64,000 nucleotides of DNA, from NCBI RefSeq assembly GCF_048403405.1, contig NZ_CP183129.1; one strand, written 5' to 3'. This DNA is from Escherichia coli. Its GTDB lineage: Bacteria > Pseudomonadota > Gammaproteobacteria > Enterobacterales > Enterobacteriaceae. Within the stretch, counting starts at the first letter, position 1. Every line of letters starts with the position of its first letter. A program made the position numbers and the translations under genes. The notes under the pieces are model-generated. The model was not told the DNA's origin. It saw nothing but the letters and a program-made list of their open reading frames with translations, and did not search any database. Positions 22,389 through 22,550 of the stretch are shown in pieces.

Positions 22389-22404
22389 GATAAAACTCAC
22401 TAAA

Positions 22405-22420
22405 CTGTCGATACGTACAG
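22405..22420 (-). promoter_or_regulatory. LexA (SOS) box upstream of ydjM
   Basis: CTGtcgatacgtaCAG is a canonical CTG-N10-CAG box immediately upstream of the ydjM start. Confidence 0.65.
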
Positions 22421-22550
22421 TATAGGATTTTTATACAGTGCGCGGAAGTGGTGACGGTGTAACTCTTTCTCTTAAATTGACGATTAATCCGTCAGTTGAA
22501 TGCAAATTCAGATAAAGAACCAGGAGCAGTGTGATCACTGCCCCTGGTCA

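Follow-up and report, generated by a model that had tools for sequence, protein, structure and literature searches.

In the SOS response, DNA damage leads to the RecA-stimulated self-cleavage of LexA, which lifts LexA repression. Among the SOS promoters with multiple LexA boxes are those of lexA and recN, where the boxes are separate full palindromes without overlap. The double SOS boxes of the colicin operons are built differently, from 20-bp boxes that overlap at their terminal bases, one of them strong and the other weak. PMC2994835 and PMC4951493, drawing on Lu and Chak 1996 and on Gillor et al. 2008, state that the colicin operators bind two LexA dimers and are tightly repressed, and PMC4951493 contrasts the tandem sites of ydjM with these operators and their terminally overlapping strong and weak sites.

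The tandem LexA operator of Escherichia coli ydjM is already known, the gene having been listed in the regulon with two boxes since 2000. Its LexA dependence is said to rest on the work of Fernandez De Henestrosa in 2000 and of Courcelle in 2001. PMC4951493 credits Fernandez De Henestrosa et al. 2000 with an experimental report of tandem LexA-binding sites at E. coli ydjM, and PMC3444427 cites the same paper (Mol Microbiol 35:1560) for the ydjM boxes. One of the sites is printed as CACTGTATAAAAATCCTATA in PMC4576408, where it is an additional ydjM site that RegPrecise did not list. In Salmonella, ydjM has two SOS boxes at distances of 14 and 32, with heterology indices (HI) of 9.12 and 12.85 (PMC8072944); a gfp fusion to Salmonella ydjM gave no detectable fluorescence in the same study, which points to low expression. 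The E. coli gene was induced 2.5- and 8.6-fold after DNA damage or replication stress in PMC11228462, which gives an HI of 9.0, and by up to log2 2.6 over the time course in PMC11002266. PMC6590174 also tabulates it among the SOS genes.

The ydjM locus of the strain analyzed here resembles lexA and recN in having more than one LexA box at an SOS promoter, but its two boxes have 2 bp in common, and only half of the palindrome is present in the distal one. It resembles the colicin operons in its pair of terminally overlapping boxes of unequal strength. The colicin operators, however, are plasmid-borne and belong to lethal toxin and lysis genes, whereas ydjM is a chromosomal membrane-protein gene; unlike theirs, its weak box lacks the CAG altogether, and any cooperativity at ydjM is presumed. 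The nearby gene cho, a member of the same regulon, likewise has a chromosomal SOS box immediately upstream of its start codon, but that box is single and a better match.

Results

The window is the whole 64-kb stretch of E. coli DNA that was analyzed. The 1.6 kb around the operator, which carries hxpB (yniC) and ydjM, is matched, with 95-100% identity, in 5,423 of the 5,426 complete E. coli genomes. Gene features were taken from the RefSeq annotation of a 99.9% identical strain (Table 1). The YdjM product is annotated as a metal-dependent hydrolase of the inner-membrane YdjM family, and residues 1-158 match Pfam PF04307 (YdjM inner membrane protein) with 122.9 bits against a cut-off of 29 (E = 1.3e-35). 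An earlier, sequence-only reading of this DNA had described the product as a membrane protein. Elsewhere, the near-identical reference strain has espL1, a type III secretion effector gene, annotated at 27600-29498 in its own coordinates.

The terminator-like hairpin behind hxpB stands between that gene and the ydjM control region, and both LexA boxes lie downstream of it, on the noncoding side of the ydjM start. An in-frame GTG at 22400..22398, 12 nt upstream of the ATG, extends the open reading frame call to 200 aa and would bring the start to 2 nt from box 1. This GTG was rejected as the ydjM start, since RefSeq uses the ATG at 22388 and a GTG start is not conserved in other species, which have GGG-rich variants at this position. 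A role within the ribosome-binding site is more likely.

Table 1. Features of the ydjM control region and related features of the window (gene features from the RefSeq annotation of a 99.9% identical strain)
Feature	Position	Strand	Remarks
ydjM CDS	21798..22388	minus	196 aa; regulated gene
tcyP			downstream of ydjM
Shine-Dalgarno-like GTGAG	22396..22400	minus	7 nt before the ydjM ATG
LexA box 1 (proximal, strong)	22403..22422	minus	gene strand TACTGTACGTATCGACAGTT; core CTG-N10-CAG at 22405-22420
Candidate -10 element TATACT	22419..22424	minus	after CC; 5/6 to TATAAT; spans the box 2/box 1 junction
LexA box 2 (distal, weak)	22421..22440	minus	gene strand CACTGTATAAAAATCCTATA; CTG intact, CTA replaces CAG
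Candidate -35 element TTCCGC (weak)	22442..22447	minus	17 bp upstream of TATACT; 2/6 to TTGACA
Conserved upstream block	22450..22475	minus	AAGAGAAAGAGTTACACCGTCACC; at least 95% column identity, 80 species
Terminator-like hairpin	22518..22549	minus	after the hxpB stop codon; 14-bp stem, 8 GC pairs
hxpB (yniC)	22551..23219	minus	same orientation as ydjM, upstream of it
cho (ydjQ) LexA box	9303-9322	minus	CACTGGATAGATAACCAGCA; 5 nt upstream of the start codon (9297); 19.8 bits

On the gene strand, the sequence upstream of ydjM reads ...CACTTCCGCG CACTGTATAAAAATCCTATACTGTACGTATCGACAGTT TAGTGAGTTTTATC ATG. On the plus strand, positions 22405-22420 are CTGTCGATACGTACAG and positions 22421-22440 are TATAGGATTTTTATACAGTG. 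The earlier reading had given both sequences and the box coordinates correctly; it named no strand for a gene and operator that lie on the minus strand, and its quotation of the second site stopped after 18 letters, at 22438, whereas the full 20-mer runs to 22440. Box 1 contains the 16-bp core CTG-N10-CAG (CTGTACGTATCGACAG, gene strand 22420..22405), with a spacer, TCGATACGTA, that deviates from (TA)5. Box 2 is without this core and reads CTG-N10-CTA on the gene strand; on the plus strand, it has CAG at 22436-22438 and TAG (22423-22425) in the CTG position. The two boxes overlap by 2 bp (TA, 22421-22422) to form a 38-bp operator at 22403-22440. Both are intergenic, with 14 nt from the end of box 1 and 32 nt from the end of box 2 to the ydjM ATG, and these distances equal those printed for the Salmonella gene (PMC8072944).

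The boxes were compared with the 20-bp LexA consensus TACTG(TA)5CAGTA from PMC6590174. Box 1 agrees at 15 of 20 positions and is the best of the 63,981 positions in the window; box 2 agrees at 14 of 20, a score that two other sites, one of them the cho box, also reach in second place. A weight matrix was also built by symmetrizing 24 chromosomal E. coli LexA boxes from the literature, with those of ydjM and cho excluded. With this matrix, the cho box was the top match of the whole window (19.8 bits), followed by ydjM box 1 (16.1 bits) and ydjM box 2 (11.8 bits). Since neither gene contributed to the matrix, the cho box serves as an independent positive control for the scan. Approximate HI values from this matrix were 8.7 for box 1 and 11.0 for box 2, and both lie below the value of about 15 that is used as the criterion for a close consensus match. 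The sequence-only reading had proposed a matrix scan as a check, and the scan thus places its two sites second and third in 64 kb, behind cho. Its description of box 1 as a perfect consensus applies to the CTG and CAG triplets; at 15/20 overall and an HI of about 9, the box is a predicted site of moderate affinity. A further sequence, CACTGGATAGATTATTAGCA at 23949-23968 in the 3' end of yniA, has its first 12 bases in common with the cho box; lying inside yniA, without a CAG and with 8.8 bits, it was rejected as a LexA box and taken as a chance match.

The bare CTG-N10-CAG core is not diagnostic, since it occurs 23 times in the 64-kb window against 11.7 expected, mostly as CTGG...CCAG within coding sequence. 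This abundance is what might suggest that box 1 is itself a chance match with no regulatory role. Chance expectation was estimated from 300 first-order Markov sequences of 64 kb each. Sites of box 1 grade arose 0.06 times per simulated 64 kb, and no tandem pair 15-25 bp apart was seen in the 300 sequences, indicating that box 1 and the tandem arrangement are nonrandom. Sites of box 2 grade arose 0.77 times per 64 kb, so box 2 alone is not significant. Against a chance origin, box 1 is also the best consensus match in the window and lies in an intergenic position 14 nt before a start codon, its CTG and CAG are invariant in the species comparison described below, and ydjM is documented as SOS inducible. 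Conservation and the literature together exclude pure chance, and we consider its probability negligible.

Boxes 1 and 2 of this strain are identical to those at the same locus in E. coli K-12. The only difference is a single-nucleotide polymorphism at 22442, with C replacing the T of K-12 and most E. coli (CCGCGCACTG versus CCGTGCACTG); this position adjoins box 2 on its upstream side and lies within the candidate -35 element. The exact 90-mer of this strain is common to only 414 of 5,422 E. coli genomes. Variants sampled within the species have C changed to T at box 1 position 13 or T changed to C at box 2 position 14; for B2 strains, PMC3444427 had already described a T-to-C substitution in the LexA site of ydjM. 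One of the 5,422 genomes, that of NIPH17_0036 (locus L086), lacks 7 bp of box 2 (approximately 22424-22430); the deletion takes the right part of the box (CACTGTATAA-------ATACTG) and makes the strain a naturally occurring box 2 mutant.

Conservation was followed across Enterobacteriaceae with one genome per species, giving 80 loci in which YdjM identity is 84-99%; counts are over 81 sequences. The genera covered include Escherichia, Citrobacter, Salmonella, Enterobacter, Lelliottia, Kosakonia, Raoultella, Leclercia, Atlantibacter, and Franconibacter. The conserved zone extends over about 95 nt before the ydjM ATG, with divergence farther out. This control region is retained with either of two upstream genes, an SDR-type oxidoreductase (ending in ...VDGGWLAR; L031, 308-1105) in Enterobacter cloacae or hxpB (compared at L027, 380-1051) in Salmonella and E. 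coli.

Within the conserved zone, the TACTG and CAG of box 1 are kept in 81/81 sequences, the CAG of one locus having been established by eye, and the distance from the end of box 1 to the ATG is 14 nt in 66 of the 81. The earlier claim of a LexA box upstream of ydjM is thus confirmed for an intergenic, conserved, and published site. In box 2, 78/81 sequences retain the CTG, the exceptions being Citrobacter amalonaticus S646, Intestinirhabdus alba, and a Leclercia sequence with a 1-nt insertion. The second-best matrix site is offset from the best by exactly 18 bp in the upstream direction in 79/81 sequences. For the right arm of box 2, all 81 sequences, from 80 species, read CCTATA, and none has a CAG there. 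At the level of sequence, this one-and-a-half-palindrome architecture is fixed across Enterobacteriaceae, a pattern that speaks for selection maintaining both the weak site and its non-CAG arm. The sequence-only reading was correct that one arm of the second site is defective (TAG for CTG on the plus strand); its judgment that the site is at best degenerate understates a conserved and documented weak site.

These data also bear on whether box 2 is a LexA site at all. Only box 1 might be functional, with box 2 being an AT-rich core promoter (TATAAA/TATACT) conserved for RNA polymerase. Such a role would fit the uniform lack of a CAG, a score that chance supplies about 0.8 times per 64 kb, and the omission of box 2 from RegPrecise (PMC4576408), as well as the loss of the box 2 CTG in two species and the 7-bp deletion in one E. 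coli strain, with the gene apparently intact. It does not fit the ACTGTA of box 2, which no promoter element calls for and which nevertheless persists at a constant 18-bp register in 78/81 sequences, nor the right-arm C16, which is kept too. In addition, tandem binding is cited as experimentally reported in PMC4951493, two boxes were called independently in Salmonella (PMC8072944), and overlapping strong and weak boxes are a known LexA architecture (PMC4951493, PMC2994835). We therefore regard a functional role for box 1 alone as unlikely and favor an operator of two LexA boxes.

A scan of 22300-22620 for a sigma-70 consensus promoter found none, and a relaxed enumeration returned only weak pairs, the best of which were CCGTCA-16-TATAAA and TTCCGC-17-TATACT. 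Because the scan was empty, the promoter was assigned from conservation. TATACT and the CC that precedes it are invariant in 81/81 sequences, whereas the alternative -10 element TATAAA (22435..22430, inside box 2) is kept in just 68 of 81; the TTCCG of the candidate -35 element is strongly conserved across species. TATACT is thus likely to be the ydjM -10 element, which would put the start site near 22412, about halfway through box 1. Selection on the non-CAG arm of box 2 would then probably reflect a second role of this arm as the -10 element.

A promoter farther upstream was also considered. In the spacer between yniC and ydjM, Shimada et al. 2014 (PMC3946193) place a constitutive RpoD promoter with the hexamers CTGAAA-17-ATTAAT, corresponding to approximately 22511..22483, and if it served ydjM, the LexA boxes would act as a downstream roadblock at about +35 to +75. 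The lack of a canonical promoter overlapping the boxes would agree with this arrangement. However, the hexamers in PMC3946193 are sequence predictions in a low-resolution genomic SELEX peak, and this window reads CTGAAT rather than CTGAAA. Moreover, in contrast to the 95 nt next to ydjM, the stretch is not conserved beyond Escherichia and close relatives, and in Enterobacter it is replaced by the end of another gene. For want of conservation, CTGAAA-17-ATTAAT was rejected as the main ydjM promoter, and a roadblock of this kind is, in our estimate, very improbable. A promoter at the boxes themselves remains our preferred assignment.

The block upstream of the candidate -35 element is as conserved across the 80 species as the LexA boxes are, and it is retained even when a different gene lies upstream of ydjM. 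It contains an imperfect inverted repeat, GTTAC-ACC-GTCAC (22463..22451), that is centered about 45 nt upstream of the predicted start site and has a perfect GTTAC-N3-GTAAC version in several genera. Inspection of the block by eye for a CRP or alternative sigma factor motif gave nothing convincing. The block could be the site of a second regulator.

Discussion

The sequence, position, rarity, and conservation of the ydjM operator were computed here; LexA regulation, tandem binding, and damage induction come from the literature. We are highly confident that 22403-22440 on the minus strand is the ydjM SOS operator, consisting of two overlapping LexA boxes, a full palindrome of moderate affinity beside the gene and a weak box with a single good half. 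Membership of ydjM in the LexA regulon is established, and both sites found here correspond to the published pair. The expression data that the earlier reading had pointed to as a check agree with it, in the form of damage induction (PMC11228462, PMC11002266), and PMC4951493 cites the tandem sites as experimentally reported.

Since no canonical sigma-70 promoter was detected, the geometry of repression is one that we infer, along with the exact promoter hexamers and the start site. Either -10 candidate, together with the start site, is covered by the operator, which makes promoter occlusion the likely mode of repression. In undamaged cells, LexA dimers on the 38-bp operator would cover the core promoter and exclude RNA polymerase. 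After DNA damage, RecA filaments would promote LexA self-cleavage, the operator would be emptied, and ydjM would be transcribed. The geometry of the pair is of the colicin type, with a 2-bp overlap between boxes of 16.1 and 11.8 bits. From this geometry and the likeness to the colicin operons, box 2 is probably filled cooperatively, in dependence on a dimer already bound at box 1, and its occupancy would tighten basal repression.

A more elaborate account, which we put forward tentatively and think doubtful, treats the arm of box 2 as a matter of design. CCTATACTG would then owe its invariance in 81/81 sequences to the 2-bp overlap of the boxes, which would create the -10 element TATACT (with C at -13), and LexA would clamp this element from both sides. 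Two LexA contacts, A17 and G18, would have been given up in exchange for contacts with polymerase. The same account would read the GTTAC-N3-GT(C/A)AC repeat near -45, together with the very poor -35 element, as the site of a second regulator upstream.

The operator of ydjM is ordinary textbook SOS regulation and has small value as a discovery. It has some value for calibration, since a true regulatory site was picked out from the sequence alone and the neighboring cho box came up in the same scan. What is new is small, namely, the invariant TATACT at the box junction and the conserved upstream block, and the added value is modest and comparative. If the more elaborate account were true, ydjM would depend on more than LexA.
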